From a virus (taxonomy: Duplodnaviria; Caudoviricetes): 64,000 nt of DNA. Position numbers and translations under genes: made by a program. Below the pieces are notes generated by a model that worked only from the letters and a program-made list of their open reading frames with translations, was not told the origin of the DNA and did no database searches. The stretch is from IMG/VR virus record IMGVR_UViG_3300032292_000698, positions 36,984-100,983 of that record; one strand, written 5' to 3'. Position 1 is the first letter of the stretch; each line of letters begins with the position of its first letter. This document shows, one piece after another, positions 590-64,000 of this stretch.

Positions 590-590
590 T

Positions 591-2554: not shown

Positions 2555-2557
2555 TTT

Positions 2558-4913: not shown

Positions 4914-4916
4914 TTT

Positions 4917-6586: not shown

Positions 6587-6589
6587 TTT

Positions 6590-9591: not shown

Positions 9592-9592
9592 T

Positions 9593-11169: not shown

Positions 11170-11172
11170 GTT

Positions 11173-13504: not shown

Positions 13505-13507
13505 ATT

Positions 13508-15128: not shown

Positions 15129-16084
15129 AGATAACTAACTATAGTGTCATTGAGAGCATCAGTAAAGTTATAATATTTGATCTTACCAAACTTTTGTTCG
15201 TAATCAAACGTTTCAATAGAATATCTGAAATCATGCCCTTTTCTGTCATCAACATGTTCAAACCATTCCCAATCAAGTCTCTGATTCGTAATGTTTTCGT
15301 ATGTAGCCGCAATAAGATACATCAACTGTATGTTTGATATTTCATTATTTCCGCCAATCAAATATTGATTACCTATATCACCACGTTCCAATACATCCCA
15401 AACGCAGTTAACGTGATCCTTTACATAAATCCAATCACGAACATTTTCTCCATTTCCATAGATCGGAATTGGTTCTTTATTCTTCAACTTACGAATGCAA
15501 GTTGGAATGAACTTCTCAACATGTTGTCGAGGACCAAAGTTATTGCTACAATTAGTGACAATTGCAGGTAGTTTGTAGGTCTTGAAGTAGCTACGGACCA
15601 ACAGGTCACTTGCAGCCTTTGTGGCTGCATATGGACTGTTTGGCTTGTAAGGCGTATCAATGTTGAACGATGTTTCCTTTGCATTCAATGAACCATACAC
15701 TTCATCGGTTGAAATGTGAATAAACTTTTCAACCTTACCATAATCGTAGATAGCTTTAATCAAATTATAGGTACCCATAATGTTGGTCATAACAAACGGA
15801 TCTGGACTATAAATTGAATTGTCTACGTGAGTTTCTGCTGCAAAATTAACAACGTGGGTGATTTCAAACTTGTTCAATGTTTGCCACAATATGACACCAT
15901 CATTGATATCAGCGACATAATGCTTATACCTTGGATCCGTATTGAATCGTAGATCCTTGTTAGCCGCATATGTCAACTTATCAACATTAATGATGACTTT
16001 AACATCGGGATCACTGAGCAACTTTTCTATAAAGTGTGAACCAATAAATCCACAACCACCTGTAACCATTATATTTTTACTCAT
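15125..16084 (-). CDS. rmlB: dTDP-glucose 4,6-dehydratase
   Basis: [41 protein letters not shown] and DRKGHDFRY. Confidence 0.97.
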
Positions 16085-17340
16085 ACAATTTCAAATTTTG
16101 GACACGGAACAATAAAATGACCACCCGCCATCAAATATGGTGCTTCACGACGTTTGAATTCATCAATAAAATGCCAAGGCAAAATCAAAAGATAATCAGG
16201 ATTGGCCTTTCTCATTTCAGCTTCAGAATAAATTGGAATGTCGGTTCCAACAGTCCTCAATCCAAACTTATATGGACTACGTTCTGCTGCACCATCAATC
16301 AAAGATTTGTCCAGTCCAAAATACTGCAATAGAGTATTACCCTTGGTAGAAGCACCATATACCCAAATCTTCTTACCACGTTCCTTCTCTTGTTTAATGA
16401 AACTATAAGTCTTCAACTTCAACTCTTGAAGTTTGTGATAGAACTCCATGTAAAACTCAATAGTGTTTGCACCAATCTTGTTTTCATACTCCAAGATAGA
16501 GTTTACACGATATTGAGCAACATCACGATATGGTGCAGTGGCGAAAGAAGTGACCTTTGCGATATCTTTCTGTAGATAGACTCTGAATGATCCGCCATTG
16601 ACATCGTTCAACTCACAATCAACAATCTTGAACTTTGCCTTTTCAGCAACGTGCTTGAAGGAATGTAGAGAATAGTACATCAAGTGTTCATGACAAATGT
16701 TGTCGAATGCCATCTGTTGAATCATCAATGGAGTGTAACTCATTTGAACCACAAACATTCCTTCATCGTTCAATACTTGATACACTTCATTCAAGAACGC
16801 AACGGGGTCAGGCAGGTCATAGAACATCGCAATACACGTAATTACGTCACACTTACGTCCCTTGAAAATACTACGGTCAAATGCGTCCTTTGAGAAGTAG
16901 TCCTGAATCACTTGATCAGCGAACTTGACACTCTCCTTGGTGTATGAATCATCAGCAGGATCAATTCCCAACCTAGCATATGGTGTAGGAACATAACTCA
17001 ACAACGTTCCATCATTACATGCGATATCAAGCCACAGAGGTGTGTCAGACGGTGTATGTACATTTACACAACTATCCACCACGTTCTTCAGTTGGTTACG
17101 CATAGTTTGATTGGTACCGGAACGATACCAATATTGACCGTACATTTTGCTTGGGTCAGCACCTTGTTCCAATTGAACCAACTTTGATGTGGGTGAATAC
17201 ATCAACTTCATTTCAGACTTGTAGTCATTAGAAGGTTGCTTTTTGACAAAATTTGAAATAAACAAATTACCCAAGGTGAATAGTGGCACCAAAGGATCAT
17301 TTGCTACCCGACAAACAGAAACTTTTTCAGTATATTTCAT
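16081..17340 (-). CDS. NDP-hexose C-methyltransferase
   Basis: LDIACNDGTLL, FDNICHEHLMYY, NGGSFRV, YGASTKGNTLL and PDYLLILPWHF (TylC3/TcaB9-type C3-methyltransferase). Start taken at the ATG overlapping the upstream stop. Confidence 0.9.
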   Translation of the reverse strand: MKYTEKVSVCRVANDPLVPLFTLGNLFISNFVKKQPSNDYKSEMKLMYSPTSKLVQLEQGADPSKMYGQYWYRSGTNQTMRNQLKNVVDSCVNVHTPSDTPLWLDIACNDGTLLSYVPTPYARLGIDPADDSYTKESVKFADQVIQDYFSKDAFDRSIFKGRKCDVITCIAMFYDLPDPVAFLNEVYQVLNDEGMFVVQMSYTPLMIQQMAFDNICHEHLMYYSLHSFKHVAEKAKFKIVDCELNDVNGGSFRVYLQKDIAKVTSFATAPYRDVAQYRVNSILEYENKIGANTIEFYMEFYHKLQELKLKTYSFIKQEKERGKKIWVYGASTKGNTLLQYFGLDKSLIDGAAERSPYKFGLRTVGTDIPIYSEAEMRKANPDYLLILPWHFIDEFKRREAPYLMAGGHFIVPCPKFEIV

Positions 17341-18206
17341 TGTGATTTCCAATTATTTAAACAGTAATCCAGAGCTTCATCCACAGTTCTCATTTTGATT
17401 CCGGTTGACAACAATCGTTGATTGCTCATAACACAGTTAGAACGTGGAGTTTTTGCGGCTGTGGTATAAAACGATTCTTCGTTATCAAAAAATTCAAAGA
17501 TCTTATCTTTAGCGATAGTCTTTTGCATCATTTCAATAACTTGTTTTGTGGTTACAAAACCAGTATTAGTAACATTGTAAATACCATATGGTACTTGACG
17601 AGTAATAGTTTCAATACAAGCACTAACAAACTCTTGTTTATTAGATATAGAATTTTCTGCATCCAATAGTTTTTTATAATTCAACATTTTGGACAGATAA
17701 TTTCTAGGATTATCTACATCTTCAAATGGTATTCTCAATCTCCAGATATAGTGTTCAGGAGCATTTTTGATGATAATGTTCTCAGCCATAGCTTTAGTTC
17801 CACTGTAAAAGCTACAGTTGTTTTGTTCAAAACTAAAGTTAGGCGGATCCAATTCGGTAAACGGAGAACCATCACTACGTCGTCCTGTATAAATACATCC
17901 ACTGGATACATGTGCAAACGTAATGTTATTGTTTCCACAAAACTGTGACACCATTTGTGGTAATACCACGTTTCCATAAATGGTATTATGTTTGTCAAAT
18001 TCACACGCATCCACGTTTGGCTTACCTGTATACCCAGCACAATTGACAATGGTGGTCAACTTTAACGTTTTGTGCAATAGTTCCAACTGTGAATATGTAA
18101 TTTCCTTGGAAGGAACAAGACATGGACGCACGACATGTCCTTTTTGGAATAGTTGTTTGTAAAACTCTTTACCGATATAACCGGTAGAACCTAATAGTAA
18201 AATCAT
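17337..18206 (-). CDS. NDP-4-keto-6-deoxyhexose reductase / epimerase-reductase (RmlD / NRS-ER type SDR)
   Basis: LLGSTGYIG, NCAGYTGKPNVDACE, SSGCIY, FYSGTK (YxxxK) and WRLRIP. Confidence 0.88.
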   Translation of the reverse strand: MILLLGSTGYIGKEFYKQLFQKGHVVRPCLVPSKEITYSQLELLHKTLKLTTIVNCAGYTGKPNVDACEFDKHNTIYGNVVLPQMVSQFCGNNNITFAHVSSGCIYTGRRSDGSPFTELDPPNFSFEQNNCSFYSGTKAMAENIIIKNAPEHYIWRLRIPFEDVDNPRNYLSKMLNYKKLLDAENSISNKQEFVSACIETITRQVPYGIYNVTNTGFVTTKQVIEMMQKTIAKDKIFEFFDNEESFYTTAAKTPRSNCVMSNQRLLSTGIKMRTVDEALDYCLNNWKSQ

Positions 18207-18212
18207 AACCGA

Positions 18213-19064
18213 TCATATATATGATTGGATAGACTCCAAATAATTTCTATATTCCGACTTTGGTGTCTTTTCCATTAATTTAATAAACTGTTTTTTATCA
18301 ATAAACCCCTGATTTAAACAGTCTTCTTCAATACATGCAATCTTACATCCTTGACGTTCCTGAACGGTTTGTATGTAATTACTTGCCTGAGATAAAGTTG
18401 TTGGTGATCCCGCATCTAACCACACAGTTCCTTTTGGCATTTTTATCACATTCAAATTACCCTCTTCCATATATCTACGGTTGATATCTGTGATTTCATA
18501 TTCACCACGCTTGGAAGGTTTCAATACTCTAGCATATTCAATCACGTTCTTGTCGTAGAAATATAGGCCAGGAATCGCATATTTGCTTTTAGGCATCGTT
18601 GGCTTCTCTTCAATAGACAACGCCTTACCGTTGGAATCAAAATCAACTACACCATATTCTTGAGGGTTGTTGACTTTGTAAGCAAAAACAACTGCACCAG
18701 TGAAATCAACCTTCATACGGTTGAATCCGTGAAACACGTTGTCACCTAAAATCAAACAAACACTATCATTGCCGATAAAGTCTTCAGCGATCAAAAAAGA
18801 TTGTGCAATACCATCTGGTTTGGGTTGTACTTTATAGGTAAAATTCAACCCCAAACGTTCACCATCACCAAATAACTTTTGATACAACGGAAGAAAATCA
18901 TATGATGATATGATGCAAATGTCTTTGATTCCGCAAGAAATCAATGTTGATAGTGGATAATAAATCATCGGCTTATCAAATATTGGCAACAATTGTTTGT
19001 TAACAACTGTTGTCAACGGATATAACCTAGATCCAGTTCCACCAGATAAAATGATTCCTTTCAT
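18213..19064 (-). CDS. rmlA: glucose-1-phosphate thymidylyltransferase
   Basis: GGTGSRLYPLT, KQLLPIFDKPMIYYP, LGDN, EEKP, RGEYEITD and WLDAG. Confidence 0.97.
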   Translation of the reverse strand: MKGIILSGGTGSRLYPLTTVVNKQLLPIFDKPMIYYPLSTLISCGIKDICIISSYDFLPLYQKLFGDGERLGLNFTYKVQPKPDGIAQSFLIAEDFIGNDSVCLILGDNVFHGFNRMKVDFTGAVVFAYKVNNPQEYGVVDFDSNGKALSIEEKPTMPKSKYAIPGLYFYDKNVIEYARVLKPSKRGEYEITDINRRYMEEGNLNVIKMPKGTVWLDAGSPTTLSQASNYIQTVQERQGCKIACIEEDCLNQGFIDKKQFIKLMEKTPKSEYRNYLESIQSYI

Positions 19065-19720
19065 AGGTTTGCACGTTTGTAAATTTCTCTTACTGCGTCA
19101 TTCAAATACTCTTCTTTGAGAATTTCTTCGTAAGTTTTACCTTCGGTGCTAACGTGTTTCCATTCCAAACAATAATCAGCAGCAGCCTTCACCTTGGGGT
19201 CATTCCACCGTTCATGATCGTTTGCTGGTTCGATATAGACTTTGACGTTCTTGTCGTATTCTGGCCGTACTCTGCGTTCATGTGGAGGAAATCCATACGT
19301 GTACTTGGAAACGTGAATCAAGGAGCCATTCAATTCGTTCTGAATCCAGTGTACTTCATCCTTGGGATAGAAGTTATATCGGATATCAGTGATGAAGATG
19401 ATGTCAGAATCATCCGATTCCATCTGACGTTGTAACTTTTCAGTCCAATATCTTCCTTCGGTTTGTTTGCGTTTTACGTCACCATACCACACAAGCATAT
19501 CTCGAAAGACTTTCTTGTCTTCTGAGTTTTCAGTGAACACATCCAGTCCCAACTTATCTTGAATGAATTCTTTACAGTCATTCTTGAGATTGTAAGCCAA
19601 AGCGTATGAACTACACTTGTAGCCATATTCTTCAGTCAAAATCTTTTTTGAAATGTCACAAAATAAGTTCTTTCCAGATCGTGCAACTCCAGAGATACCA
19701 ATATAACGTTTAGTTTTCAT
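19061..19720 (-). CDS. deoxynucleoside monophosphate kinase (T4 gp1-like)
   Basis: IGISGVARSGKN P-loop, R...YGD..R, YW and ITDIRY..E. Confidence 0.8.
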   Translation of the reverse strand: MKTKRYIGISGVARSGKNLFCDISKKILTEEYGYKCSSYALAYNLKNDCKEFIQDKLGLDVFTENSEDKKVFRDMLVWYGDVKRKQTEGRYWTEKLQRQMESDDSDIIFITDIRYNFYPKDEVHWIQNELNGSLIHVSKYTYGFPPHERRVRPEYDKNVKVYIEPANDHERWNDPKVKAAADYCLEWKHVSTEGKTYEEILKEEYLNDAVREIYKRANL

Positions 19721-20228
19721 TATCCATTAACTTTTCTACTTCTTTTTCTGTCAAACCGTATGCCTTGCATATATTGATCATCTCATTCAAACCAGCGTCT
19801 GTCTGAATTAAAATTTCAGCATATTCTTCAGCTTCAGATGACGAACATTCAAACCATCGTGCCAGTAGTTGATAAAATTCATCTGGAAATCTATTCTTAC
19901 CAGCTTTGATGTATTTGTTAAACTGATTGGTTTTAGGAATCGCTGATATGAGCAACGTATAAAAGTTCTTGGATGGTATAGTATCCTGATACTTTGAGAT
20001 ATACGACAATGTATCTAGGTTGGCTCTATCCATTGATAGAAACTTCAATATCATTACATGAGCAAAACTCTTTTTGTCAGCTTCGCTTAACGTATCAAAG
20101 TATTTTGGATTTTGTACACCTTTGATTTGATTCACATGATCGAACAATCCAACTGCTTTTACAGCAGGTTCATTCGATTCTTCTGAGACCTTTTTTGACT
20201 TCTTGGGAGATGATTTTTTTGTCGCCAT
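19710..20228 (-). CDS. clamp loader small subunit (T4 gp62-like)
   Basis: LFDHVNQI, MILKFLSM, FYTLL...IPK..F.KYIK and EAEEY pattern typical of gp62 homologues. Confidence 0.7.
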   Translation of the reverse strand: MATKKSSPKKSKKVSEESNEPAVKAVGLFDHVNQIKGVQNPKYFDTLSEADKKSFAHVMILKFLSMDRANLDTLSYISKYQDTIPSKNFYTLLISAIPKTNQFNKYIKAGKNRFPDEFYQLLARWFECSSSEAEEYAEILIQTDAGLNEMINICKAYGLTEKEVEKLMDNEN

Positions 20229-22792: not shown

Positions 22793-23974
22793 TCACCGTC
22801 CAACTTCTTTAAAAAAGTGTTCTTTCGCCGTGACATACGACATATCAATCATGCTATTGTAGTACAAAACATCGTTTTTCAAATTGTTTTCACTCTTCAA
22901 CTTCAAATATCTATCCTTGGCTTTGGGTCTCCACCAGTCTAAAATAGCCTTGGTATCGTCCTTAAACAATGGTTTCATCACCAATTTATCCTCAGAAATC
23001 TTGTTTTGCAAGAATTCCTTGGTATTTTCATAAAAACAACTGTAATAAACACCCCGTTCATACCCATGAACGTATTCTTGAGTCTTTAATTTCAATTCTT
23101 GAAAGATCATACTAATAACTCTTTGTTTTGCACCAGTAACAGGACCAGAAATATTGTCCTTTTGAGTCATTTTCTTGTCGTATTCTCCCTTTTTGTGTTC
23201 CTTAATCCAGTCATGCCATGCTTCATACACAATATCGTCTGGCTTAATAGGAATCTTACCAGCACTGGTTCCACACTTATGCCACCACTTCAAACTGTTA
23301 TACATACTGTAACTACCATAAAGACTTGTAGTAGTCATTCCTACCAAGGTTTGATCATACAGTTTCTTCCAAACATCACGTACTACTGATGATGTCACCA
23401 AACAAGCAACCAATTTTCCACCCAAAAAGTTAAATCCAAAGGGTTGCGTACTCATAATACAACTTCCGATTGCACTATGTACCAACTTACGATCATCCAA
23501 CTTATTCTCAGCAGTCCATCCTACGTACTTGTCTCGGTCATTGATCGTAATCACGTCACTTGATACAGAAACCGCTCCTAGGTACCGTGGGCGTTCTTCA
23601 TTGCCATCTGTAATCAGAAACTTCAAAAACCTTCCCGGTGTCTGACTAAATTCCATGGTATGGCAAAACAACCGCAACATCAACCAATCCAATTCTTGTT
23701 GTTCGGTAGTTACATGAACCATGGTAGGATTCATTTCATCCAACTGTTTCAATGTAAGAGCTTCATCATTAATATCCTTGGGTTTCCAAATTTTGCATTT
23801 TACGTCATCTGATCTACTAGCGTAGCTCTGATATTGTTTGACTTCTTCCCACTTTTTATAGAATGTAGCTTCTTCCACACTCATGGACTTTAACGCATTC
23901 ATGTTATCTATGAACTTCTTTTTTTCAAGTTCATAGTTAAACTCAATGCCTTCCATATCAAAAAAATTAGTCAT
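22793..23974 (-). CDS. DUF4338 / DruA-like protein
   Basis: TPGR.LKFL, RDKYVGW, QPFGFNFLGGKLVA, TTTSLYG.YSMYN and HGYERGVY resemble DUF4338 (DruA) family motifs. Confidence 0.7.
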   Translation of the reverse strand: MTNFFDMEGIEFNYELEKKKFIDNMNALKSMSVEEATFYKKWEEVKQYQSYASRSDDVKCKIWKPKDINDEALTLKQLDEMNPTMVHVTTEQQELDWLMLRLFCHTMEFSQTPGRFLKFLITDGNEERPRYLGAVSVSSDVITINDRDKYVGWTAENKLDDRKLVHSAIGSCIMSTQPFGFNFLGGKLVACLVTSSVVRDVWKKLYDQTLVGMTTTSLYGSYSMYNSLKWWHKCGTSAGKIPIKPDDIVYEAWHDWIKEHKKGEYDKKMTQKDNISGPVTGAKQRVISMIFQELKLKTQEYVHGYERGVYYSCFYENTKEFLQNKISEDKLVMKPLFKDDTKAILDWWRPKAKDRYLKLKSENNLKNDVLYYNSMIDMSYVTAKEHFFKEVGR

Positions 23975-28234: not shown

Positions 28235-28918
28235 TCACTTAAATTTGATGGTCAACTCGTCATCCTTTTGCTTAGGATACTTGTACTTGGCCTTTTCGCC
28301 CTTCAAAGAATGATCAGATTGTTTTTCAACCTTCTTTAAATTGACATCTTGCATTGGTTGATCGGGCAAATCTTCTTCCTTTTCAACTGCATCCACTACC
28401 TTTTCATCGGTTTCTTGTGGTTTGTCACCTTGATTCTTCTTCTTTTCCTTATCAACGCTGTTTTCTGCGGCTTTGTTGTAAGCAGCATCAAGATAATTTG
28501 GTTTATCGCTGGTCAAATAGTCCTTGATGAAGTCTTTGACTTCATCATATGTCAAACCAATCTTCTTGGTACGATCCGTCTTGTCTTTGTATGCCAATAC
28601 TTCAAAACTGTTGTTCCAACGAGGACGAACGTGAATATGATATGGTTCACAACCACACAATTCAAAGTTACCTGCGTCATTTTTGGTTACGCTGTAACTC
28701 TTGTTGATCTTTTTTGCTTCTTTATTGAGTTCTTCTTCAATTTCAGTACAAGTCTTTTCGAATTCAGTGGACTTTTCCTCAATCACTTCAGCGATAAGTC
28801 CCTTGAGAAGGGTAGCAAACTTAGTGTTTTCATCTAACCGCTTCTTTTGTTCTTTACGTTCAGCAATTACTTCCTTAATTGATTCGGAAACGAGTTGGCG
28901 CAATTGATCAATTTTCAT
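28235..28918 (-). CDS. hypothetical charged protein (candidate virion-internal protein)
   Basis: Start MKIDQLRQLVSESIKEVIAE lies just after the TATTTATA motif. The longer ORF-track start crosses a terminator. Confidence 0.75.
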   Translation of the reverse strand: MKIDQLRQLVSESIKEVIAERKEQKKRLDENTKFATLLKGLIAEVIEEKSTEFEKTCTEIEEELNKEAKKINKSYSVTKNDAGNFELCGCEPYHIHVRPRWNNSFEVLAYKDKTDRTKKIGLTYDEVKDFIKDYLTSDKPNYLDAAYNKAAENSVDKEKKKNQGDKPQETDEKVVDAVEKEEDLPDQPMQDVNLKKVEKQSDHSLKGEKAKYKYPKQKDDELTIKFK

Positions 28919-28956
28919 ATTATGTCTATAAATATAGGTAGTTAACATATAACAAC

Positions 28957-28987
28957 AAAAAAAGAACACCCTTTTGGAGTGTTCTTT
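28957..28987 (-). terminator. intrinsic terminator
   Basis: AAAGAACAC-loop-GTGTTCTTT hairpin plus U-run, downstream of nrdB and the small peptide gene. Confidence 0.75.
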
Positions 28988-29006
28988 GACTGTTCGATCT
29001 ATCGAA

Positions 29007-29162
29007 TTAACGACGTTGTGATCCAGATGATCCCGAGGATCCTGAAGATCCAGACTTGCCACCAGAACTTGTTGGCTTGGTAGCAGGCTTAGAACCACTT
29101 GATCCATTAGCACCGGCTGAAGCGGTTGGCTTTGGAGTTGGTGTTGGTGTTGGCTTTGGCAT
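29007..29162 (-). CDS. 51-aa Pro/Thr/Ser/Gly low-complexity peptide
   Basis: MPKPTPTPTPKPTASAGANGSSGSKPATKPTSSGGKSGSSGSSGSSGSQRR, preceded by an AAGGA SD and followed by a terminator. Confidence 0.7.
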   Translation of the reverse strand: MPKPTPTPTPKPTASAGANGSSGSKPATKPTSSGGKSGSSGSSGSSGSQRR

Positions 29163-54682: not shown

Positions 54683-57600
54683 TTAGGCGCCTGGGAACTC
54701 AGCACCAGTTGGCAAGATGTTGAAATCAAGCACGATGAATTCAGCCGTCTTGGTTGGTTGTAGATAGATTTGTCCGTAAAGAATATTACGATCAATCAAG
54801 TCAGGAGTGTTGTTGGTTTCGTCCATCTTCACTTGGAAGGCGTACAAACCACTACGTTGTTGAACCTGTTCAAGGTAAGGATTGACAATACTCAAGAAAC
54901 GGTTACGAGTGTTTGCCACGTTTTGTTCGAATACCAAGAAACGTGAGCTTGAAGCAATAAACTTCTTCAAGTTGATCATCAAGCGACGAACGTTGATACG
55001 ATCCAATGCACTTGGTGCGATCTGAAGAGTCTTTTGACCCCACACGCAAATACCCTGTCCGGGGAATGCGGCGATTGGGTTAACACGACCCTCATAGAGA
55101 GTGTCACGTTCACCGTGTGTCAAACGATCCAATACTTGGACAGCTTGTGTGATTCCACCACGGTTCAAACCAGCAGGAGCAAACCATTCAGCCGAAGCCT
55201 TATCGTTTGAAGCGTAGATTGCTGGAAGAACAACTGAAGGAGGAACACTCACAATCTTGTTCAAGTTGGTATCAAGAATCTTGACCCATGGATAGTATGT
55301 AGCAACGTAACTTGAATCGATGTTGGCAGCTACGTTCACTGCTGCATCAATCAAGCCTGTGCTTTGATTGCTCTTAGGGAACACCACGTTATCCATGATG
55401 TAGAAACAATCACCACGTGCTTCACACATATCAATTGTCAACTGTGCCACATAACTGTGGTGTTGATAGAAGATACCCGGAGTCACGATCAAGTTAATGT
55501 CGAATTCATCAGCATTACCAAGAGCACCAATACATTGACGATAAGCAATGCTACCGGCAGTAGTAATACTGGTACAATTCAAACCTTGAGTATTGCCTGG
55601 AATAATGTCAGATCCAACATTGATTGGAACCGCTGGTGATTGACCATCAAATCCGCCTTGGAATCCAAGAACGAATTTACGCATCTTCACACGGGTTGAT
55701 TCAAATGCAGCATCATAAGTTGATGGAACACCACCGCTGTCGTTTTGTACATCTGGTTGTTTTGAACCAGTTGGACTATATGCATCACCTTCTTCAAGGT
55801 CAAACACTACGTTATTGCCAATTGAAGTGAATCCTTCATAAGCAGGTAGCGGAGCGAAGTATTGAAGGTTGTCGTTGTGTACACTGTACACACCCACACT
55901 TGATGTTGGATATAGTGCCAACAAATCATCAGCAGCACCCACTGGAGGTTCACCAAACACAATACCCGATGGATATTTGCCTGGAGCAGTTGAGTAGGTT
56001 GATGCGCGAGTGAATTGTACTGGTGGCAAGAATCCACCAAGAGTACCACCAACAGGTGTAGCAAGAGCATCAAATCCGTAAGGAATTGATGATGTTGGAT
56101 ACACGTTTTCGGTCATCTCAATACGAACGTACTTACTCAAGTTGGAGTAGGTACCGAACTCAATAATCTTACCAGAGTAAGAAATATAGTTGTAACGATC
56201 ACCGATACGACGAGCGATGAAGTTACTGCTATCTGGATCAAGATTCAAGTTTTGGAAACGTTCCAAATACTTAGGACTCTTGTCGGTGTCACTGAACTTA
56301 CGTACTGCCAACGTGAATGAACCCCAATCACTTCCTGCGACTGTACCAGCGAGTTTTACATCACTAATTTCAATCTTATAAGAAGTGTTCATGTTCGTAC
56401 CATCAGCGAGTGTATGAATACGGAACAATGGGAAACGTTGTGGTTGAGCAGTAACATCAGCTGTACCAGTGAATGGAGCAACTTGTTGTGAATTGATCCA
56501 AGGTGTTGTTGCCCACTTCAAACTGAAGTCACTATCACCGGTTGTTGGTGTGTAACCATAGTTATCAGTGAACTTCATTGGATTACCGGTCAATACAAGT
56601 TTGTTCTCACCACCAGTTGGTGTGTAAGGAGCTTCACTGCCTACAATCATCCAACCATCAGACGGATCGGTTGATTCCTCAACAATACGAGCGATGGTAT
56701 CCTTGAAGATATTGTACAAATAAGCAGCTTCAATCTTTTGACCAGCCACTTGCTTAGCAGGATCACCTGCGGTAGCATCTGATCCAAATACATTGGTGAT
56801 GTAGTTAGAACTTGCTGGATCCAATGAGAATTCATAGGTTCCATAACTTCCACTTGAACCACCGATGTTGTAACGCAAATCAAGAACATAGTCTTGTGCG
56901 GTTGGATCTGCACTACCACTGTACAAACCAGAGGTTGCAATCTTCTTACTGAATACAGAACCCTCGAAACCATAAACAACCTGTGCCAACTTGTTGTTTG
57001 CATCAGACTGAATTGTTGCGTTTTGAGTGTTTGCCAAAACAGCAAGAACCACTGATTCACGGGTTGCACCCGGATTACATGGATCACCACCAGAAACTAC
57101 ATTTTCAGTGAAAGCAGTGAACTTACCAAAACTACCGGTAATGTTACAGGTCAACTGAATTTGAACACCGCAACTATTTGTTGGACGATACTTGGCAAAA
57201 TTGATACTGTTAATGATAACAGAAGATGCAGCACCAGATACTGGGAAGTCATCGCTCAACTTAACCAAACTGCTTGTGGTTGCCAAACTACCAGACAAAC
57301 GTCCAGTTTGTTCAGCAAGAGCACGCAACAACTTGGCTTCAGCGCTGATTGTCAAGTCACCTTGATAACTGGAGCTGATTTCAAATGAAGCGGCATTAAA
57401 CGTAAGATTCACATCACCGATATAACGAGTGGTGTAAGTCTTGTTACCAGTTGTGCCTGGAGGATTGTATGTTGCAAATGAGCTGGTCTCAAAGTTTGCA
57501 TACAAACTACCAGTAATGGTCAATGTTTCAGTTGCACTTGAACTGACGTACTGTACGTTTACAGTAATATCGTCTGGGTCCAAAGCAATGTACGATGAAT

Positions 57601-57991
57601 CGGCCGTACCCAAAGATGTGAACGATCCACTCTCCGTATTACGTGTATAATAACCCGGAATTGCGTAAATCACAAACGGATTATCTTGTTTGTATCCCGT
57701 CAATGCACCTACACGACAAACGGTCACTAGACCTTGTTCTTGTAGGTATTGTTTGGCAGTGTAAGGACCGTAGTATACTCCGTCCGCTACACCGAATTTT
57801 TCCTCTAGCTCAGATACGCTGGTGACAACGGTTGGAGCAAAGCCTGGTCCCTTGGGGAAGGGAGCGACAATAGCTCCACCAATATCAGCCACGCCTTGAG
57901 CAAGGCCTGACAAGTCGTTTTCACGACTGAAAACGCCAGGACTTACTATTCTGTCGTGTGGAGTAAATGTACCCCCTTCTGTAATTGGCAT
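54683..57991 (-). CDS. tail sheath protein (gp18-like)
   Basis: SPGVFSRENDLS, PKGP, YYPW, WFAPAGLNRG, WGQKTLQ, DRINVRRL and PTKTAEFI. Confidence 0.97.
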   Translation of the reverse strand: MPITEGGTFTPHDRIVSPGVFSRENDLSGLAQGVADIGGAIVAPFPKGPGFAPTVVTSVSELEEKFGVADGVYYGPYTAKQYLQEQGLVTVCRVGALTGYKQDNPFVIYAIPGYYTRNTESGSFTSLGTADSSYIALDPDDITVNVQYVSSSATETLTITGSLYANFETSSFATYNPPGTTGNKTYTTRYIGDVNLTFNAASFEISSSYQGDLTISAEAKLLRALAEQTGRLSGSLATTSSLVKLSDDFPVSGAASSVIINSINFAKYRPTNSCGVQIQLTCNITGSFGKFTAFTENVVSGGDPCNPGATRESVVLAVLANTQNATIQSDANNKLAQVVYGFEGSVFSKKIATSGLYSGSADPTAQDYVLDLRYNIGGSSGSYGTYEFSLDPASSNYITNVFGSDATAGDPAKQVAGQKIEAAYLYNIFKDTIARIVEESTDPSDGWMIVGSEAPYTPTGGENKLVLTGNPMKFTDNYGYTPTTGDSDFSLKWATTPWINSQQVAPFTGTADVTAQPQRFPLFRIHTLADGTNMNTSYKIEISDVKLAGTVAGSDWGSFTLAVRKFSDTDKSPKYLERFQNLNLDPDSSNFIARRIGDRYNYISYSGKIIEFGTYSNLSKYVRIEMTENVYPTSSIPYGFDALATPVGGTLGGFLPPVQFTRASTYSTAPGKYPSGIVFGEPPVGAADDLLALYPTSSVGVYSVHNDNLQYFAPLPAYEGFTSIGNNVVFDLEEGDAYSPTGSKQPDVQNDSGGVPSTYDAAFESTRVKMRKFVLGFQGGFDGQSPAVPINVGSDIIPGNTQGLNCTSITTAGSIAYRQCIGALGNADEFDINLIVTPGIFYQHHSYVAQLTIDMCEARGDCFYIMDNVVFPKSNQSTGLIDAAVNVAANIDSSYVATYYPWVKILDTNLNKIVSVPPSVVLPAIYASNDKASAEWFAPAGLNRGGITQAVQVLDRLTHGERDTLYEGRVNPIAAFPGQGICVWGQKTLQIAPSALDRINVRRLMINLKKFIASSSRFLVFEQNVANTRNRFLSIVNPYLEQVQQRSGLYAFQVKMDETNNTPDLIDRNILYGQIYLQPTKTAEFIVLDFNILPTGAEFPGA

Positions 57992-58052
57992 ATGCTAAAT
58001 TTCCTTTCGATTGGTTGAAGTTTTGTATGAGACGCATACAAAAAACTCTAAA

Positions 58053-58060
58053 TATAAATA
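58053..58060 (-). promoter_or_regulatory. TATTTATA putative phage late-promoter motif (also at 22780, 28927, 50847, 52357, 52948, 54305; variants at 40095, 54606)
   Basis: Recurs 3-61 nt upstream of minus-strand genes, mostly structural ones. Confidence 0.65.
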
Positions 58061-58087
58061 TTTCTGAAAATTTGAAAGTCTAAATAT

Positions 58088-58921
58088 TTATATTTTAAGG
58101 CTACTTTTAAGGTCAATTATTGTTTTTACTGATTTTATTATTTGATTGGGTTCAATACTATACGTACATTCATGTTGTCGATATGTGTTTTTATGACGTG
58201 GACACCAAATATCTTCCCACACTATTTCTAAAGAATTGTCATTATAACATCCCCGACACATACCCTCGGCAGGACCAATACGAACACAATTGTCAGAAAA
58301 CTCAAAATACGAATGTGTGTGACCACTCAACATAATCACAGGCACTCCTAGGCACCACGCTAACCAAGCCAAACCAGAACTTACACCAATGTACACACTT
58401 GAACTATAAATGAGGTTGCAAACGGTTTTTAAATCATGCCCGGTGCAGTTTTTTATATTTGACAATGTACTAACTTCTTTTGATACTGAGATTGGAGTAT
58501 ATCCAATAGAGTTAATGTACTTTATTACCTTTACCCACCCAATAGGATTGGTCCACGATTTGGCATAATTACTACCAAATTCAGAAAATGTCATCGTATT
58601 ACCCTCAGTGTTAATCAACTTTGATACATTAAACCGAGGTCTGATTTCAACATACTCAAGACCCAAAGCATGTGCTCCAGACCACTGCAATGGTTTTTCT
58701 CTATCTGCAACATCGATAGTAATTAATTTGTCATACGAACTGGGTTGATAATAATTCAAATCAGAATACACATCTCCAAATAACTCTTTGTAGTAAAAGT
58801 TAGTGTAAACTTCCCAATTATACTTCTGTCTAGCTAAATCGATATAGGGCAACCAAGCAATGTTGTCACCCAATTGATTGCTTTCAAGATGTACGTATAC
58901 CTTCTGTCTTGATAAGTTCAT
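58088..58921 (-). CDS. Aah/TibC-like (BAHT) heptosyltransferase, stand-alone catalytic domain
   Basis: QLGDNIAWLPY, GVSSGLAWLAW and iron-finger CRGC...WCP...HEC. Confidence 0.78.
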   Translation of the reverse strand: MNLSRQKVYVHLESNQLGDNIAWLPYIDLARQKYNWEVYTNFYYKELFGDVYSDLNYYQPSSYDKLITIDVADREKPLQWSGAHALGLEYVEIRPRFNVSKLINTEGNTMTFSEFGSNYAKSWTNPIGWVKVIKYINSIGYTPISVSKEVSTLSNIKNCTGHDLKTVCNLIYSSSVYIGVSSGLAWLAWCLGVPVIMLSGHTHSYFEFSDNCVRIGPAEGMCRGCYNDNSLEIVWEDIWCPRHKNTYRQHECTYSIEPNQIIKSVKTIIDLKSSLKI

Positions 58922-60977
58922 TGATCGAATCAATTACCATTTGTGAACTGATTTGTTTAGAACACTCAAATTCTCTAGCGGTACCCTTTTGACGAGGACA
59001 CCACATCCAATCACCTTTATCAAATTCATGTTCATTCCAACATCCATTACAAACATTGGTATTGATCACTCTGTAGGGAGTATAAAACTCACTGCGTGGT
59101 AAACTAAATCCACTCACCAACACCGTAGGTTTGTTTAATGCCCATGACAACCATGACAATCCTGATCCAATACCCACAAAGAATTCACTGTTGTGCAACA
59201 AATTCATGGTTTCTTGAATCTCCTTTGGACCCGACTTGTTGATGATATTTTTCAAATCATCACGTGGTTCAGCCTGAATTAACACCGGTTTCAAACCAAT
59301 GCTGTTCAAATAATCACACATCTCCTGCCAACCAGTTGGATTATTCCAGAATTTGGCCTGAGCTGTTGAATGAGTGGCAAAACAAACATACTTCTGTTCA
59401 ATCTTTCGAGTGGTGTCATTAACTTTCAAGATCGGACGAATTTCTTTGTGGTTGATACCCAAGATCGAAGACGAAATACGTTGAAGTCCTACATCCTTAT
59501 AATTGAATACAGATCTAGCATTGTCAGGAAAACATCCAATCATGTAAATTGCGTAAAAGTTTCCGCTCCATTCTAATCCGCAGAACTTTATGTTAGAATA
59601 TGTTTCTTTAAACAAAGACGCCCAATTGGTAGCACACGTAACATTGCATTGATGTTTCTTTCTAAACTCTTCAATATATGGAAACCACGCCAAACAATCT
59701 CCCAACGACTTGGTATCAAGACAGATCAAAACTTCTTTTCCTCTCAAATCAATACGATGATCCAATACCAATTGTGAATTAGCATGAACTTTGATACGAT
59801 ATGGAATATACCGTTTGATAAAACATTTGGCCCACTCATTTGTCTTCATCGTTCCACCATACAACGACTCTTCAGAATCTTCATCAATGAACTCAAAATC
59901 ATATTTGACAGATGGATCTCCACCGTTGATAGAAAGATAAGCACCATCAACATAATTGATTTCAATCTTGGCACTCTGAACTTGTTGTGGCCTATTCACG
60001 GTCAAATCATACACACTATTCAATTCGTTTTTCATACGATATTCATCCAGTTTACAATAAACATCAATCAAGTCTTTTGCTACATTGTTCCAATCATTGG
60101 CTATAGCATATTTACGAGCATCCCGCCGAAAATTAACCCAGTTATTCATTGCTGTTGCAATGCCGTTATATACAGAATCAACATTACGTTCCACCTTTAC
60201 CATTCCGGGTAATACTTCACTATCAAATGTCGATACAACCGGCAATGAACATCCCATAGCTTCCAACAACGTCAAATTTGGATGACCAGCTTCAACTGAA
60301 GATGGATGCAAAAAGATTGTATGAGACTGATATGTCTTGACCAATTCCTGTTCCGTTAAATCATACAAAAATGTAAGTTTGTCGTAAGGTTTGTAATCAG
60401 CATTCTTTTCAAAAAATTCACGGTTAATAGATGGACCCGCAATCGTAATTGGTAAGTTGTGTCTACGAGCAGCTTCAATCGCATATACAAATCCTTTTCG
60501 ATCAAACGAAATATCTTCACACAATCCATTTCTACCAACACACAATAGTGAATGTTTAGATGGCTGATCACCATAAGTAAACATTGTAGAATTAACACCG
60601 TGACGAAGATACTGAACACGTTTGCTCTCAAAGAAAGACACCAAATGTTTTGCAGGTACTAACGATACAATTGATTTTTCAATAGCTTCACGGTTCTGTT
60701 TGTACAAAAGAGAATGAACACCATACACTTCAGTATGATGATCGTGCATTGTAAAAACATATGGAATGCCACGTTCATGGGCAATTAACGCTAGATTTGC
60801 TACATGTATGTGAACAACATCATAGTCTGATTTGTTCACCTCATCCAAATATTTGATATCACATGTGTGACCAGCACGTTCAAACGCCTGTTTGTATTCC
60901 CAAATAATTTTTTCGATTGCACCCCACCCGTTTGGTGGAATTGAAATAAGGCCCGGGGTAACTTGACAAATTTTCAT
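58884..60977 (-). CDS. GT4 + Aah/TibC-like autotransporter O-heptosyltransferase fusion
   Basis: N-terminal IPPNGWGAIE...EAGHPNLTLLEA (GT4). C-terminal SLGDCLAWFPY, STAQAKFWNN, GIGSGLSWLSW, SGFS and CNGC...WCP...FEC. Confidence 0.88.
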   Translation of the reverse strand: MKICQVTPGLISIPPNGWGAIEKIIWEYKQAFERAGHTCDIKYLDEVNKSDYDVVHIHVANLALIAHERGIPYVFTMHDHHTEVYGVHSLLYKQNREAIEKSIVSLVPAKHLVSFFESKRVQYLRHGVNSTMFTYGDQPSKHSLLCVGRNGLCEDISFDRKGFVYAIEAARRHNLPITIAGPSINREFFEKNADYKPYDKLTFLYDLTEQELVKTYQSHTIFLHPSSVEAGHPNLTLLEAMGCSLPVVSTFDSEVLPGMVKVERNVDSVYNGIATAMNNWVNFRRDARKYAIANDWNNVAKDLIDVYCKLDEYRMKNELNSVYDLTVNRPQQVQSAKIEINYVDGAYLSINGGDPSVKYDFEFIDEDSEESLYGGTMKTNEWAKCFIKRYIPYRIKVHANSQLVLDHRIDLRGKEVLICLDTKSLGDCLAWFPYIEEFRKKHQCNVTCATNWASLFKETYSNIKFCGLEWSGNFYAIYMIGCFPDNARSVFNYKDVGLQRISSSILGINHKEIRPILKVNDTTRKIEQKYVCFATHSTAQAKFWNNPTGWQEMCDYLNSIGLKPVLIQAEPRDDLKNIINKSGPKEIQETMNLLHNSEFFVGIGSGLSWLSWALNKPTVLVSGFSLPRSEFYTPYRVINTNVCNGCWNEHEFDKGDWMWCPRQKGTAREFECSKQISSQMVIDSINELIKTEGIRTS

Positions 60978-60982
60978 AACAA

Positions 60983-63415
60983 TTATTGAATCACTGACTG
61001 CCTAGAAAACGTTTTCATATAACTAGTCAATTGACCATAAGATTGAATTGTTTTAAATAGATCCACAAACTGATTGTTAATAACATAACCATTAACACCA
61101 GAACGTTTGGTGGAATAATAAAAATCATCAGATCCAATGCAATCAGTTTCACCGTGTACCAATGACACGGTAGGAATGTTCTTTTTGACAGCATAATCAT
61201 GTGCAAACCTAACCTTCTGAATAAACGCATCTGGTGAAACTGCAAGATCACCATCAGTCACAACCACATTTATATGAGATGGAAAGTTATACAACTGTTG
61301 AACCACTTCCAATTCAGTAGATTCCAAATAATCACGATACACAACTCCCAACGCAGTCAAAGAAGGTATAGACGAATCTTTATCATTGGAATCAATGTGA
61401 TGTATATTAATTGTAGAATCAATACTCAAAGGACCATGCGGATAACGCACAAACGATCCATTATCAGAAATTTCATTGACATCAACAAATTGAATTAGTT
61501 TATTGTTAATACGTTCATAGTTTGAATTGAACTCTTCCAAGGTAATACCATACGAACGTCCCGACACAATTTTAACAGGATGATACACTCGGTTATCATT
61601 CAATTGACAATATCCCAACCTCAAAATCAAACTCTTATTCTCATACACCCTGATAACCACATTTTTGTTATCAATTATGTTGCTGGAACTCTTCCAAATG
61701 TAAAAACAATCTTTTGTATCGTTAGGAACCACAGAAAAATACTCAACGCACGAAAATGAATTCAAATCACTGTTGGGAAACAAATCTTCTTCGGATTTAT
61801 CAACAATTGTCAAATCCTTCAACTTGTTTTTCATAGAATAATACACATAATTCTCCAAACTGTTGCTAGGACATCCATTTTTACGAATACTTTCATTGTA
61901 TTGTTCCTCATTTACTACAATATCAAAGTTGTTTAGAAAATAATCGTTATCAATAACGAAAAACACAGTCTTTAATGTATCTCCTTCACCCAAAACTTCA
62001 TGCATGAAGAATCCTTTTGACGAATTGTGTTCCAATTTATCAACAATATCGTTCACCACCTTCAAATCTTGATCGTTTAACACAATATCATAGTTCAAAC
62101 ACACACTGTATTTGAATCCTTGATCTTTAGCCTTACGAATACCATTCTGATAGTTGGTCCAAACAGCCAATCCATGATAATTGTTGTTGTCGTTGGCTTT
62201 CAAATTCAAATCACAACGAAACGACGAATCCTGATACCAATATTTTGAATAAAAAGAATGCTTAATAATAGGATTTACAGGATCATATACCACTGTATCA
62301 GCAATAGTCTCATAATCTTTGTAACTGTTGTGATGGGTAACCAGAATTTTGTGAGAGTTTGTCAGATTACGCAAACATTTAATCGTGGTTTTTGTAGCAA
62401 TATCCGTAGATGGATATGTCGAAACCACATATGCATAGTTTATGGGTTTACTTTTTTTTTGAACAAAAGACCGAATCATGTCCACATTCTTCTTTGCATT
62501 GTTATTCAAATAGGTAATGTTGGAAAACCGGTCATACATGTTCAAATATACCGGTAAGTTGTATATCAACGAGGGTATACGATAACTGATAGCCTCTCTT
62601 ATAACAATAGGACTGGTTTCTTTATCGTGTTCATTGCCACGACTAGTAAACAAAAACATGTCCATACAACTATAAAAGGTATCTACATCTTTACGTTCAC
62701 CCCAGACCTTACAATTGGATGGCAAATTCGCCAATATTGGCCCCCAGTAATCTTGAAAATTACCAGCCGTATTTCCCACAAAATGAAACTGAACAGGTAC
62801 ATCACTCAATTGACGAGCGTATTCAACAATTTCACCCTGATTCTTACGTGAAGACCACAATCCCACATTAACTACATGAAACAATTCGGGATCCAAACCC
62901 AAGTTCTTCAGCGCACCATCTCTATCACTAACTCTCTCTTTATACAAAATGGGATATTCAATAACCTTAGAATCAATATTGAGCGCGGTCATGTTACGCT
63001 TCTGATACTCACTGACAAATACAAACTGATCAGGAAAGAACTTCTTGTTGGCTACATCAAAACTACTATCATGCGACGTTTCTACAATATGATAACGACG
63101 GGTATTGGAATATACCTTCACCGCAACATCATGATCCATGTAATACTCGGGCATTTCTTCCAAATGAATGATATCAGGATCAATCTTGTCAATAATAGAC
63201 AACAGTTCATGTTTGTTGTCTTTCAAAGCAAAATGTTTGCTTCCCAACATCTCCTTAACTTGGTTTTTTTGTACAACAAACCATTCTCCATAGTCATTAT
63301 ACTCAACACAATAAACGTCGTGGGTGTCTTTCAATATGCTCATCTTCTTGAGCAAATACTGAGGACACCCACCGGTCGATAAATGCGGCGTGATATACAG
63401 AATCTTATAACTCAT
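60983..63415 (-). CDS. multidomain glycosyltransferase (GT4 + GT-A-like)
   Basis: ITPHLSTGGCPQY, RKNQ and ETSPIVIREA, then a second domain with YVVSTY and CLNYD. Confidence 0.8.
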   Translation of the reverse strand: MSYKILYITPHLSTGGCPQYLLKKMSILKDTHDVYCVEYNDYGEWFVVQKNQVKEMLGSKHFALKDNKHELLSIIDKIDPDIIHLEEMPEYYMDHDVAVKVYSNTRRYHIVETSHDSSFDVANKKFFPDQFVFVSEYQKRNMTALNIDSKVIEYPILYKERVSDRDGALKNLGLDPELFHVVNVGLWSSRKNQGEIVEYARQLSDVPVQFHFVGNTAGNFQDYWGPILANLPSNCKVWGERKDVDTFYSCMDMFLFTSRGNEHDKETSPIVIREAISYRIPSLIYNLPVYLNMYDRFSNITYLNNNAKKNVDMIRSFVQKKSKPINYAYVVSTYPSTDIATKTTIKCLRNLTNSHKILVTHHNSYKDYETIADTVVYDPVNPIIKHSFYSKYWYQDSSFRCDLNLKANDNNNYHGLAVWTNYQNGIRKAKDQGFKYSVCLNYDIVLNDQDLKVVNDIVDKLEHNSSKGFFMHEVLGEGDTLKTVFFVIDNDYFLNNFDIVVNEEQYNESIRKNGCPSNSLENYVYYSMKNKLKDLTIVDKSEEDLFPNSDLNSFSCVEYFSVVPNDTKDCFYIWKSSSNIIDNKNVVIRVYENKSLILRLGYCQLNDNRVYHPVKIVSGRSYGITLEEFNSNYERINNKLIQFVDVNEISDNGSFVRYPHGPLSIDSTINIHHIDSNDKDSSIPSLTALGVVYRDYLESTELEVVQQLYNFPSHINVVVTDGDLAVSPDAFIQKVRFAHDYAVKKNIPTVSLVHGETDCIGSDDFYYSTKRSGVNGYVINNQFVDLFKTIQSYGQLTSYMKTFSRQSVIQ

Positions 63416-63448
63416 TTATTAAAACTATTTTCTAACCACCCCTGACGT

Positions 63449-64000
63449 TTATTTTATTTTCTCCATCAACAATTTTACTTGTTTTTCAAGAATTTCAACT
63501 CGGGTTGCCATTTCTTTAAACGCATTGATCGTTACCCACTGCAATTTATCCGAATTGACCCAATAGTATCTTTGTGGACCACTATCACTTGGATGTGCTT
63601 TTTGTTCGAATGTTGTTACCAGTTCAGGAAAGTCATTCATTACGTCCTGAGCAATAATACCATACGAAACAACTTCATCCGACTTTTTATCATTGCCAAG
63701 ATTGTTGTACTCAAATGACACAGGATTGAGTTTCAACAAATCAGTCAACCCCTTGTTCAACGGACGAATGTTCTTCTTCAAACGACGGTCAGATGTGGCA
63801 CCAGACGCACCTTGAGCTCCTTGAGCGCCTTTTACACCTGATGTACCTGCAGCACCTTGTGCGCCTGTGGCACCTCCACCGCCTTGTGCACCTTGAGCGC
63901 CTTGAAGACCTGTTCCACCTTGACCGCCTTGTGCACCCTGAGCGCCACTTGTTCCACTTGAACCTGCAGCACCTTGAGCGCCTTGTGCGCCCTGAGCACC
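63449..64000 (-). CDS. collagen-like tail fibre C-terminus with S74 intramolecular chaperone (5'-truncated)
   Basis: Frame is open to the window edge: (GAQ)n/GSSGTS Gly-X-Y repeats, then SDRRLKKNI...LNPVSF...GIIAQ..PELV and a coiled coil. Confidence 0.9.
   Translation of the reverse strand, partial: GAQGAQGAQGAAGSSGTSGAQGAQGGQGGTGLQGAQGAQGGGGATGAQGAAGTSGVKGAQGAQGASGATSDRRLKKNIRPLNKGLTDLLKLNPVSFEYNNLGNDKKSDEVVSYGIIAQDVMNDFPELVTTFEQKAHPSDSGPQRYYWVNSDKLQWVTINAFKEMATRVEILEKQVKLLMEKIK
63794..64000 (-). repeat. proline-free Gly-X-Y collagen-like repeat
   Basis: GAQGAQGAQGAAGSSGTSGAQGAQGGQGGTGLQGAQGAQGGGGATGAQGAAGTSGVKGAQGAQGASGAT. Confidence 0.9.

Follow-up and report, generated by a model that had tools for sequence, protein, structure and literature searches.

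The DNA considered here, hereafter called the window, is a stretch of 64,000 nucleotides (nt) from a tailed virus (Duplodnaviria; Caudoviricetes; IMG/VR record IMGVR_UViG_3300032292_000698, positions 36,984 to 100,983), the end of which (58088-64000) holds a module of three glycosyltransferase (GT) genes between a collagen-like tail-fibre gene and the tail sheath gene. Along the direction of transcription the order is the collagen-like/S74 fibre, an 810-amino-acid (aa) GT (GT810), a 697-aa fusion of a GT4 domain with a TibC-like domain of the BAHT family, a barrel-less TibC-like paralogue of 277-281 aa and the tail sheath, and every one of these genes is carried by the minus strand. The features, in the order of the window coordinates, are:

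54683-57991, minus strand: tail sheath gene, 1102 aa (Pfam Phage_sheath_1 and Phage_sheath_1C)
58088-58921, minus strand: barrel-less TibC-like paralogue, 277 aa from the probable ATG at 58921 (the frame is open for 281 aa from a TTG at 58933)
58884-60977, minus strand: 697-aa GT4::BAHT fusion gene (GT4/GT1 at residues 45-288; TIGR04414 at residues 334-687)
58908-59996, minus strand: full-length TibC-like domain of the fusion, residues 328-690 (beta-barrel, GT-B catalytic core and four-Cys finger)
60048-60977, minus strand: N-terminal GT4 domain of the fusion, residues ~1-310 (Pfam Glycos_transf_1 E 4.3e-10, Glyco_trans_1_4 and Glyco_transf_4)
60983-63415, minus strand: GT810 gene, 810 aa (Pfam Glycos_transf_1)
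61016-61744, minus strand: GT810 domains 3 and 4, a predicted beta-sandwich (residues ~558-643) and a predicted second alpha/beta domain (~653-800), from the secondary structure of the model
61751-62443, minus strand: GT810 domain 2, residues ~325-555, predicted GT-A fold (AlphaFold sub-model)
62447-63415, minus strand: GT810 domain 1, residues 1-323, GT4-type GT-B (Pfam Glycos_transf_1 E 2.7e-06, residues 171-321)
63449-64000, minus strand: visible C-terminal part of the fibre gene, the last 183 residues (the gene continues past the window end)
63614-63793, minus strand: S74 intramolecular chaperone domain at the fibre C-terminus (Pfam Peptidase_S74 E 2e-15, residues 70-129 of the visible fragment)
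63794-64000, minus strand: Gly-X-Y collagen-like region of the fibre (Pfam Collagen E 3.6e-07; ~22 triplets)

The genes are tightly packed, with 33 nt between the fibre gene (stop codon at 63449-63451) and the GT810 gene, 5 nt between the GT810 gene and the fusion, an overlap of 38 nt between the short paralogue and the fusion stop, and 96 nt from the short paralogue to the start of the sheath gene. This layout bears out the original prediction, made from the sequence letters without database searches, which had described two co-oriented genes with the BAHT signature, one of them fused to a GT4 domain, a third multidomain GT beside them, a Gly-X-Y fibre with GSS, GTS and GAT triplets and an S74 chaperone immediately upstream, and a tail sheath directly downstream of the enzymes.

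The fusion matches the model TIGR04414 (hepto_Aah_TibC) with 337.4 bits (cut-off 200; E 9.5e-101) over model positions 8-373 of 374, and TibC itself (4rap_A) with an E-value of 1.9e-69 across chain residues 14-388, whereas the model of the lipopolysaccharide (LPS) heptosyltransferase I gives only 26.8 bits. E-values such as these, and those of the domain matches above, lie well outside what chance would give. Its N-terminal barrel is complete, with 94 residues aligning to TibC positions 1-97, a region that TibC itself needs, as deletion of the N-terminal 80 or 95 residues abolishes activity (PMC4358343). In TibC, Asp110 is the catalytic base, Thr226 and Lys230 are ligands of the beta-phosphate and Trp305 is a ligand of heptose O4, so that T226, K230 and W305 hold the beta-phosphate and heptose O4/O5 (PMC4358343). 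These positions and the cysteines C339/342/358/370 are conserved in 156 of the 164 family members compared, and their counterparts in the fusion are D427, T538, K542, W609 and C643/C646/C660/C672. The LGD loop, the G-x-x-SGL-x-WL-x-W motif and the C-x-x-C...C...C finger are found in both TibC-like proteins of the window, which keep the equivalents of D110, K230 and W305, with Thr (fusion) or Ser (short copy) at position 226, and in which all four iron-finger cysteines are aligned and predicted to bind iron. Because the score against TIGR04414 so far exceeds that against heptosyltransferase I and the finger cysteines are kept, the two enzymes are, judged by their sequences, true TibC/Aah homologues, and the alternative of a WaaC/WaaF-type enzyme, which the original prediction had itself put forward for comparison, fails. 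The fused arrangement is one of two, as many relatives encode the GT4 domain on its own, in a gene of ~316 aa immediately preceding that of the BAHT. Pfam scans of the window's open reading frames (ORFs) of at least 120 aa found no AIDA/TibA-type autotransporter, the neighbours being the collagen-like fibre and the sheath.

The short paralogue reaches 145 bits against TIGR04414, under the cut-off, and covers only model positions 76-374. Only 10 of its residues align to TibC 1-97, the protein beginning at the strand before LGD. Orthologues are present in the window's immediate clade (L007, L009, L010 and L093) and, more distantly, in L012 and L013, and none was found in the close relative L008. 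Between orthologues of 30-70% identity the catalytic residues do not vary, so the short copy is under selection as an enzyme or as the partner of one. In the tree it stands distant from the full-length copy (29% identity), in a separate and well-supported clade. A search with the short paralogue alone matched only its own lineage, and a four-sequence profile added one contig (L093) and then merged into the full-length BAHTs. A barrel-less second paralogue is a distinctive feature of the window's lineage. As TibC protomers sit back to back, with the barrel of one against the iron finger of the other (PMC4358343), it is reasonable to think that the short copy might pair with the full-length one. 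Tandem pairs of full-length BAHT genes also occur in bacterial contigs (L166, L170, L175, L176, L182, L192, L193, L198, L200, L204, L214 and L241), mostly from Negativicutes and often directly upstream of an AIDA-like autotransporter, so paired BAHT paralogues are not limited to phages, and they may point to hetero-oligomeric enzymes.

Both window proteins depart from TibC at two functionally important places. In TibC, Arg286 bonds adenine N1, which is said to explain the specificity for ADP, and the R286A variant loses all or most activity, while a beta-hairpin thumb (around Phe265/Val266) joins dimers into a dodecameric ring (PMC4358343). The Arg286 position is occupied by Thr590 in the fusion and by Val in the short paralogue, and the thumb region (TibC positions 256-279), which has 24 residues in the E. 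coli enzymes, is cut down to 16 in the fusion and 14 in the short copy, the GFVWNHIPWG stretch being missing in both. Since Arg286 and the full thumb are missing in both copies, and the barrel in the short one, the sequences place these enzymes in a divergent viral branch of the TibC fold, for which the label 'autotransporter heptosyltransferases' is not appropriate. That both the adenine-reading Arg and the dodecamer thumb have been lost points to a donor or an assembly unlike that of TibC, and a dodecameric ring is doubtful in the window's enzymes. Among 125 aligned family members, Arg286 is present in 25, every one with a thumb region of at least 20 residues; 62 combine the lack of Arg with a 20-residue loop and 38 the lack of Arg with a short loop, the window's proteins being among the latter. 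Bacterial copies lying within two genes of an AIDA-like ORF carry Arg286 and the long thumb without exception (39/39), and among viral copies with Arg286 and the long thumb 14/39 adjoin a collagen-like fibre. Arg286 was therefore rejected as a marker of acceptor type, since viral copies with this residue also adjoin collagen-like fibres.

The third enzyme, GT810, was modelled with AlphaFold (AF2) from 18 homologues of related loci (pLDDT 83), with a sub-model of residues 325-810 (pLDDT 86.8, pTM 0.85). Domain 1 aligns by VIA-align to 6eji_A with Z 23.4 (root-mean-square deviation (rmsd) 2.9, 290 aligned) and to PimA, BshA and WaaG with Z 22-23, and Foldseek also returned BshA (E 6.7e-11). Domain 2 aligns best to B4GALNT1 (Z 14.1, rmsd 2.9, 164 aligned), and numerous GT-A enzymes reach Z 12-13. 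Over the whole of residues 325-810, alignments to tandem GT-A enzymes reached Z 12.6 for CHSY3-CHPF, 11.7 for K4CP and 11.6 for LARGE1, with rmsd of 16-19, and the top Foldseek rows were human COLGALT1 (E 5e-07, TM 0.27-0.29) and LH3, but with TM of 0.25-0.29 overall and an rmsd of ~18 A. Pfam GT25 matches the C-terminal part in 4 of the 18 homologues (best E 8.8e-05) and does not match the window copy, for which Pfam searches up to E 10 on residues 325-550, 555-645 and 645-810 gave nothing usable. Atlas returned WavE at 0.92, a lead only, and GT25/GT_PLOD at 0.81, within noise. COLGALT1 (GT25) and LH3/PLOD3 share the tandem GT-A layout with GT810 325-810, other tandem GT-A enzymes score alike, and both act on hydroxylysine, for which no hydroxylase was seen in the window; the resemblance is one of layout, not an established membership, and the modelled likeness to collagen-glycosylating enzymes can serve as a lead only. 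The module as a whole holds five or six GT-type domains, which is enough for building an oligosaccharide. None of the three enzymes contains a membrane-type hydrophobic segment, the sole peak, in the short protein, being a conserved core strand-helix that is present in TibC too.

The fibre has the architecture of a collagen-like S74 tail fibre, with Gly-X-Y repeats, predicted from the domain matches to form a triple helix, followed by the C-terminal Peptidase_S74 domain. Its visible triplets are mostly GAQ, with additional GSS, GTS, GAT and GAS. In L088, a metagenome contig that is nearly identical, 157 aa of this fibre region are visible, built from a repeat unit of ~14 triplets of GAQ, GGQ, GLQ and GAA, and each unit holds one GSS-GTS (or GSS-GIS) island. 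If the enzymes act on the fibre, they likely do so in this lineage at these islands. The whole gene was sought by exact 40-mer in viral and metagenome contigs, and the two found (IMG/VR 3300014836_000307 and JACCDP010245048.1) both end within the collagen repeats. A Gly-Ala-Gln-rich fibre with periodic GSS-GTS islands is peculiar to the window's lineage, unlike the GTS-rich fibres linked to the module elsewhere.

Relatives of the BAHT enzymes are numerous, with at least 561 contigs in IMG/VR, 2668 proteins at E <=1e-10 in the protein database and at least 581 prokaryote species genomes, while among 50,697 deposited phage records only four have one, namely Microcystis phage Mel-JY01 and three huge metagenomic phages. 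For a survey of gene context, the ORFs of the 80 best viral loci were called and given labels according to which of the window's proteins they resemble, and for the enrichment test the loci were collapsed to 66 clusters at 90% BAHT identity. Collagen-like ORFs made up 28 of the 215 genes within two genes of the GT/BAHT module and 10 of the 443 further out (odds ratio 6.5, Fisher p 1.1e-07). A frequent order is a giant collagen-like ORF, GT810-like, GT4, BAHT, an ORF of ~83 aa, sheath and tube. In other loci, e.g., L018, L033, L039, L041, L052, L066 and L069, the collagen-like ORF lies directly downstream of the BAHT fusion, and in L016, L060, L071, L076 and L085 it is convergent on the opposite strand. 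As the pairing recurs in at least three gene orders, shared synteny alone cannot explain it. The linked fibres form a distinct class, typically with Ser/Thr in 70-100% of their triplets, GTS/GSS dominant, and nearly proline-free; that of the closest large relative (L008; fusion protein 73% identical) has 2170 aa and 504 GTS triplets. The few copies in bacteria or metagenome-assembled genomes that lie away from AIDA-type autotransporters adjoin GTS/GSS collagen-like ORFs (L165, L190, L197 and L199).

The cultured Microcystis phage Mel-JY01 (L001, PP395634.1) has the same linkage. An open GSS/GTS frame of at least 1016 aa (2-3052, plus strand), which runs into the start of the record, lies on the same strand as the enzyme gene and is followed by a 'structural protein' and then by a 1226-aa GT4...TibC_1st+GT9 fusion (4750-8430, plus strand). 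The record labels this fusion 'methyltransferase FkbM' and annotates the GSS/GTS stretch as two minus-strand hypothetical proteins plus a short plus-strand coding sequence, so that the deposited annotation seems to miss the collagen-like gene. Many environmental homologues (P0007, P0008, P0010, P0016, P0023, P0039, P0062, P0067 and P0118) are proteins of 600-637 aa in which an FkbM-type methyltransferase domain (PF05050) is fused to a BAHT domain, which suggests methylated sugars in some such systems.

Taken together, the module is likely a TibC-fold O-glycosyltransferase that has been retargeted in phages to collagen-like fibres. From the homology, the conserved catalytic residues, the domain folds and the gene linkage we infer the acceptor, the order of sugars, the donor and the benefit as follows. 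The three genes would make up a soluble, cytoplasmic protein O-glycosylation module, co-transcribed with the late structural genes, in which the TibC-like domain of the 697-aa fusion would use the LGD Asp to place the first sugar on Ser/Thr hydroxyls of the proline-free collagen-like fibre. This sugar would then be extended into a short oligosaccharide by the fused GT4 domain together with three domains of GT810 (GT4, GT-A and the second alpha/beta one), and the barrel-less paralogue might glycosylate a second class of sites or pair with the full-length enzyme. Host ADP-heptose is a possible nucleotide-sugar donor, and the phage could benefit from a stiffer or more stable fibre, from shielding against proteases or immune defences, or from adhesion. 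To the reading as a cytoplasmic, late-expressed virion O-glycosylation module that acts on the collagen-like fibre we assign a probability of roughly 0.6. Several observations weigh against it: gene linkage does not identify the acceptor, and glycans have yet to be seen on any fibre of this kind; what is visible of the fibre in the window and in L088 consists largely of Gly-Ala-Gln and has few Ser/Thr, the remainder of the gene lying past the contig ends; Arg286, needed for TibC activity, is absent from both window copies; loss of the barrel abolishes TibC activity (PMC4358343), so the barrel-less paralogue may be inactive alone; the sheath gene lies directly downstream in 29 of 72 loci; and the same window contains a glycan-synthesis island of ~20 kb. 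That island also means that the self-contained glycosylation system envisaged in the original prediction for 58088-64000 does not stand. The prediction's idea that the phage primes its own virion proteins with a sugar gains from the TibC homology and from the conservation of the BAHT-fibre linkage, which it had proposed as a check and which holds over many diverged viral contigs in several gene orders, whereas neither the heptose nor the fibre acceptor is proven. Heptosylation in particular is not established, as Arg286 and most of the thumb are lost and neither the window nor its closest relatives has a heptose pathway, the former absence having been noted in the prediction and agreeing with our Pfam scans of ORFs of at least 120 aa, which found no GmhA, HldE or GmhB-type gene.

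Classical heptosylation, in which host ADP-heptose is the donor, the oligomer is TibC-like, only the acceptor is new and the changes at Arg286 and in the thumb are neutral, is nevertheless the alternative that survives best, and we hold it possible with the odds clearly against it. It would agree with the conserved contacts of T226 (Ser in the short copy), K230 and W305 and with the 14 of 39 viral copies that have Arg286 and a long thumb and adjoin collagen-like fibres, but the Thr and Val at the Arg286 position of the window copies stand against it, given that R286A abolishes or greatly lowers the activity of TibC, and Arg286 and the long thumb travel with the classical function, as seen in all 39 AIDA-adjacent bacterial copies. 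Of 26 larger module-bearing contigs, mostly fragments, two have a gmhA-like gene and six a small rfaE-domain-II-like cytidylyltransferase, all of them scattered matches below threshold. Three close relatives and the complete Mel-JY01 genome showed neither gmhA nor an hldE kinase domain. The loss of Arg286 and the failure to find heptose-pathway genes make ADP-heptose one candidate and not the default. The two gmhA-like genes, in L078 and L082 (217 and 256 kb), encode putative sedoheptulose-7-phosphate isomerases of 202 bits against a cut-off of 209 (G023:C1:77932-78390 and G025:C1:175631-176089), and some BAHT-bearing phages may make their own heptose precursor. Another potential source of the donor in the window are its genes of the RmlA/RmlB type for a C-methyl-deoxyhexose, which could supply it, though nothing ties them to the module.

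A bolder version of the fibre reading, which we regard as unlikely, would have a non-dodecameric and possibly heteromeric enzyme, in which the short copy borrows the barrel of the full-length one and the donor has been switched from ADP-heptose, perhaps to a product of the phage's deoxy/C-methyl-hexose pathway (15-19 kb). Such an enzyme would prime the Ser/Thr of the GSS-GTS islands, and the O-glycans would hold together a proline-free triple helix, which would make a glycan-stabilised kind of fibre common in aquatic phages.

The tail sheath is an improbable acceptor, although its position has a parallel in the classical systems, where the enzyme gene precedes the substrate gene (aah-aidA, tibC-tibA). 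The sugars would in this case decorate enlarged outer domains of the 1102-aa sheath, which is ~400-500 aa longer than in many relatives and has 28-35% Ser/Thr at residues ~121-210, and a sheath homologue follows within 1.5 kb in the 29 loci mentioned above, counted among 72 with enough downstream DNA, starting in the window 96 nt past the end of the short BAHT gene. Module-bearing relatives do not, however, conserve the inserted sheath region, and the adjacency is confined to loci of one sheath-tube synteny, in which the tube is ~55-60% identical and only the core of the sheath is conserved; in other lineages the module lies away from the sheath yet still beside a GTS/GSS fibre gene. The sheath adjacency is probably the synteny of one lineage, and for this reason we rank the sheath well below the fibre as an acceptor.

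Least probable is that the module, together with the 20-kb island, targets the host by remodelling its LPS, capsule or surface proteins (superinfection exclusion, receptor masking): the GT9 clan includes the LPS heptosyltransferases and Pfam Glyco_transf_9 matches the fusion at E 1.6e-08, the window has more than 10 further GTs, Glf, an FkbM methyltransferase and an RmlA/RmlB-type pathway, and in papers on aquatic myophages GT clusters of this kind are interpreted as LPS- or DNA-related (PMC7029224 for LPS), but the fusion scores 337 bits against TIGR04414 and 27 against LPS heptosyltransferase I, the protein-binding iron finger and barrel are kept, no membrane segment, flippase or polyprenyl-phosphate transferase was seen among the module genes, and these genes lie inside a structural block and are linked to fibres across lineages.

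The closest known systems are TibC-TibA and Aah-AIDA-I of E. coli (bacterial autotransporter heptosyltransferases, BAHT; TIGR04414; PDB 4RAP/4RB4; PMC4358343), which share with the fusion the barrel, the GT-B core and the four-Cys insertion at ~36-40% identity, and whose catalytic Asp in LGD, phosphate-binding Thr/Lys and sugar-binding Trp are kept in it. TibC and Aah are cytoplasmic protein O-glycosyltransferases encoded beside a long, repetitive, Ser/Thr-bearing surface fibre, and the gene placement in the window is alike. In contrast to these, the window's enzyme is phage-encoded and its neighbour is a Gly-X-Y collagen-like fibre instead of a beta-helical autotransporter. The window's lineage further adds the GT4 fusion, the barrel-less paralogue and the multidomain GT, and has Arg286 replaced and a thumb of 14-16 instead of 24 residues. 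That phage GTs encoded beside structural genes modify the phage's own virion proteins has been demonstrated by experiment in mycobacteriophages, according to the account of Freeman et al. (2023, Cell Host Microbe) given in PMC12619734. The acceptors described in that account are C-terminal extensions of the capsid and tail-tube proteins and the enzymes are not TibC-like, whereas the window has a BAHT homologue with a likely collagen-like fibre acceptor.

Glycosylated collagen-like filaments are also familiar from Bacillus anthracis, where the GXT collagen-like region of BclA bears Thr-linked rhamnose-anthrose oligosaccharides (PMC6222408, PMC10050317). BclA and the phage fibres are both microbial surface filaments with collagen-like repeats. 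Collagen is glucosylated in Mimivirus by L230, and galactosyl-Thr collagen is found in Riftia. In such proteins O-linked sugars on Thr/Ser-rich triple-helix repeats make the fibre more stable or make up its surface. The enzymes of these three systems belong to unrelated or uncharacterised families, none of them TibC-type, and the phage fibres differ from their collagens in being almost proline-free GTS/GSS arrays, or GAQ in the window. Full-text searches of the literature turned up the BAHT papers and the work on virion glycosylation in mycobacteriophages, but no account of a phage enzyme resembling TibC or of a collagen-like phage fibre that bears sugars.

Should the fibre prove to carry sugars, O-glycosylation of the TibC type would no longer be special to enterobacterial adhesins but a strategy widespread among phages, and virion glycosylation, experimentally demonstrated so far in mycobacteriophages, would extend to environmental myoviruses. 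It would also explain how stable fibres are made from proline-free Gly-Thr-Ser arrays of up to thousands of residues, and any account of how aquatic phage particles recognise hosts, stick and decay would have to take glycans into consideration. With its divergent residue at the donor site, the BAHT fold here provides a natural experiment on nucleotide-sugar specificity, and as Mel-JY01 is a cultured phage with the same linkage, the question is directly testable.

The remaining window is that of a distant T4-like genome, with genes for a baseplate protein, gp32, UvsX/RecA, ribonucleotide reductase and a helicase. The phage is probably a jumbo phage, because the contigs of its closest relatives (109-172 kb) are estimated to be only 35-49% complete. 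An octamer resembling T4 late promoters, TATAAATA, occurs at 13 sites in the window against 3.8 expected, a number reached in 0 of 100 shuffles, and one minus-strand site (58085-58092) lies on the coding strand ~95 nt before the sheath start. No TATAAATA site immediately precedes the three GT genes, in agreement with a transcript that they share with the fibre gene. Megablast of 54683-64000 against the 50,697 deposited phage records gave no match. The 5.3-kb module (58088-63415) occurs nearly unchanged in lake water: 18 metagenome runs, each of a separate study (2018-2024), contain 92-93% of its sampled 31-mers, not counting two further runs that may be its source, and no RNA run containing it was listed in the run search. 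The phage of the window is persistent and widespread in freshwater lakes.

The glycan-synthesis island of ~20 kb lies at 579-20228 and carries on the plus strand genes for GT1-like, GT2, GT11, GT7C-like, GT6, HtrL/YibB, FkbM methyltransferase, GT4 and UDP-galactopyranose mutase proteins, and on the minus strand genes for a nucleotidyltransferase, an RmlD-like reductase, a sugar C-methyltransferase and a 4,6-dehydratase; the island and the fibre module could contribute to one and the same glycan. Amid the replication and repair genes, at 22793-23974 (minus strand), lies the gene of a protein that matches the Druantia DruA domain (PF14236, E 2.4e-23). A Gly-Ser-Ser tract (GKS GSS GSS GSS GSQ; 29016-29060, minus strand) near the N-terminus of a 292-aa protein that has no Pfam match (ORF 28235-29113) is possibly a second acceptor-like motif, distant from the module.

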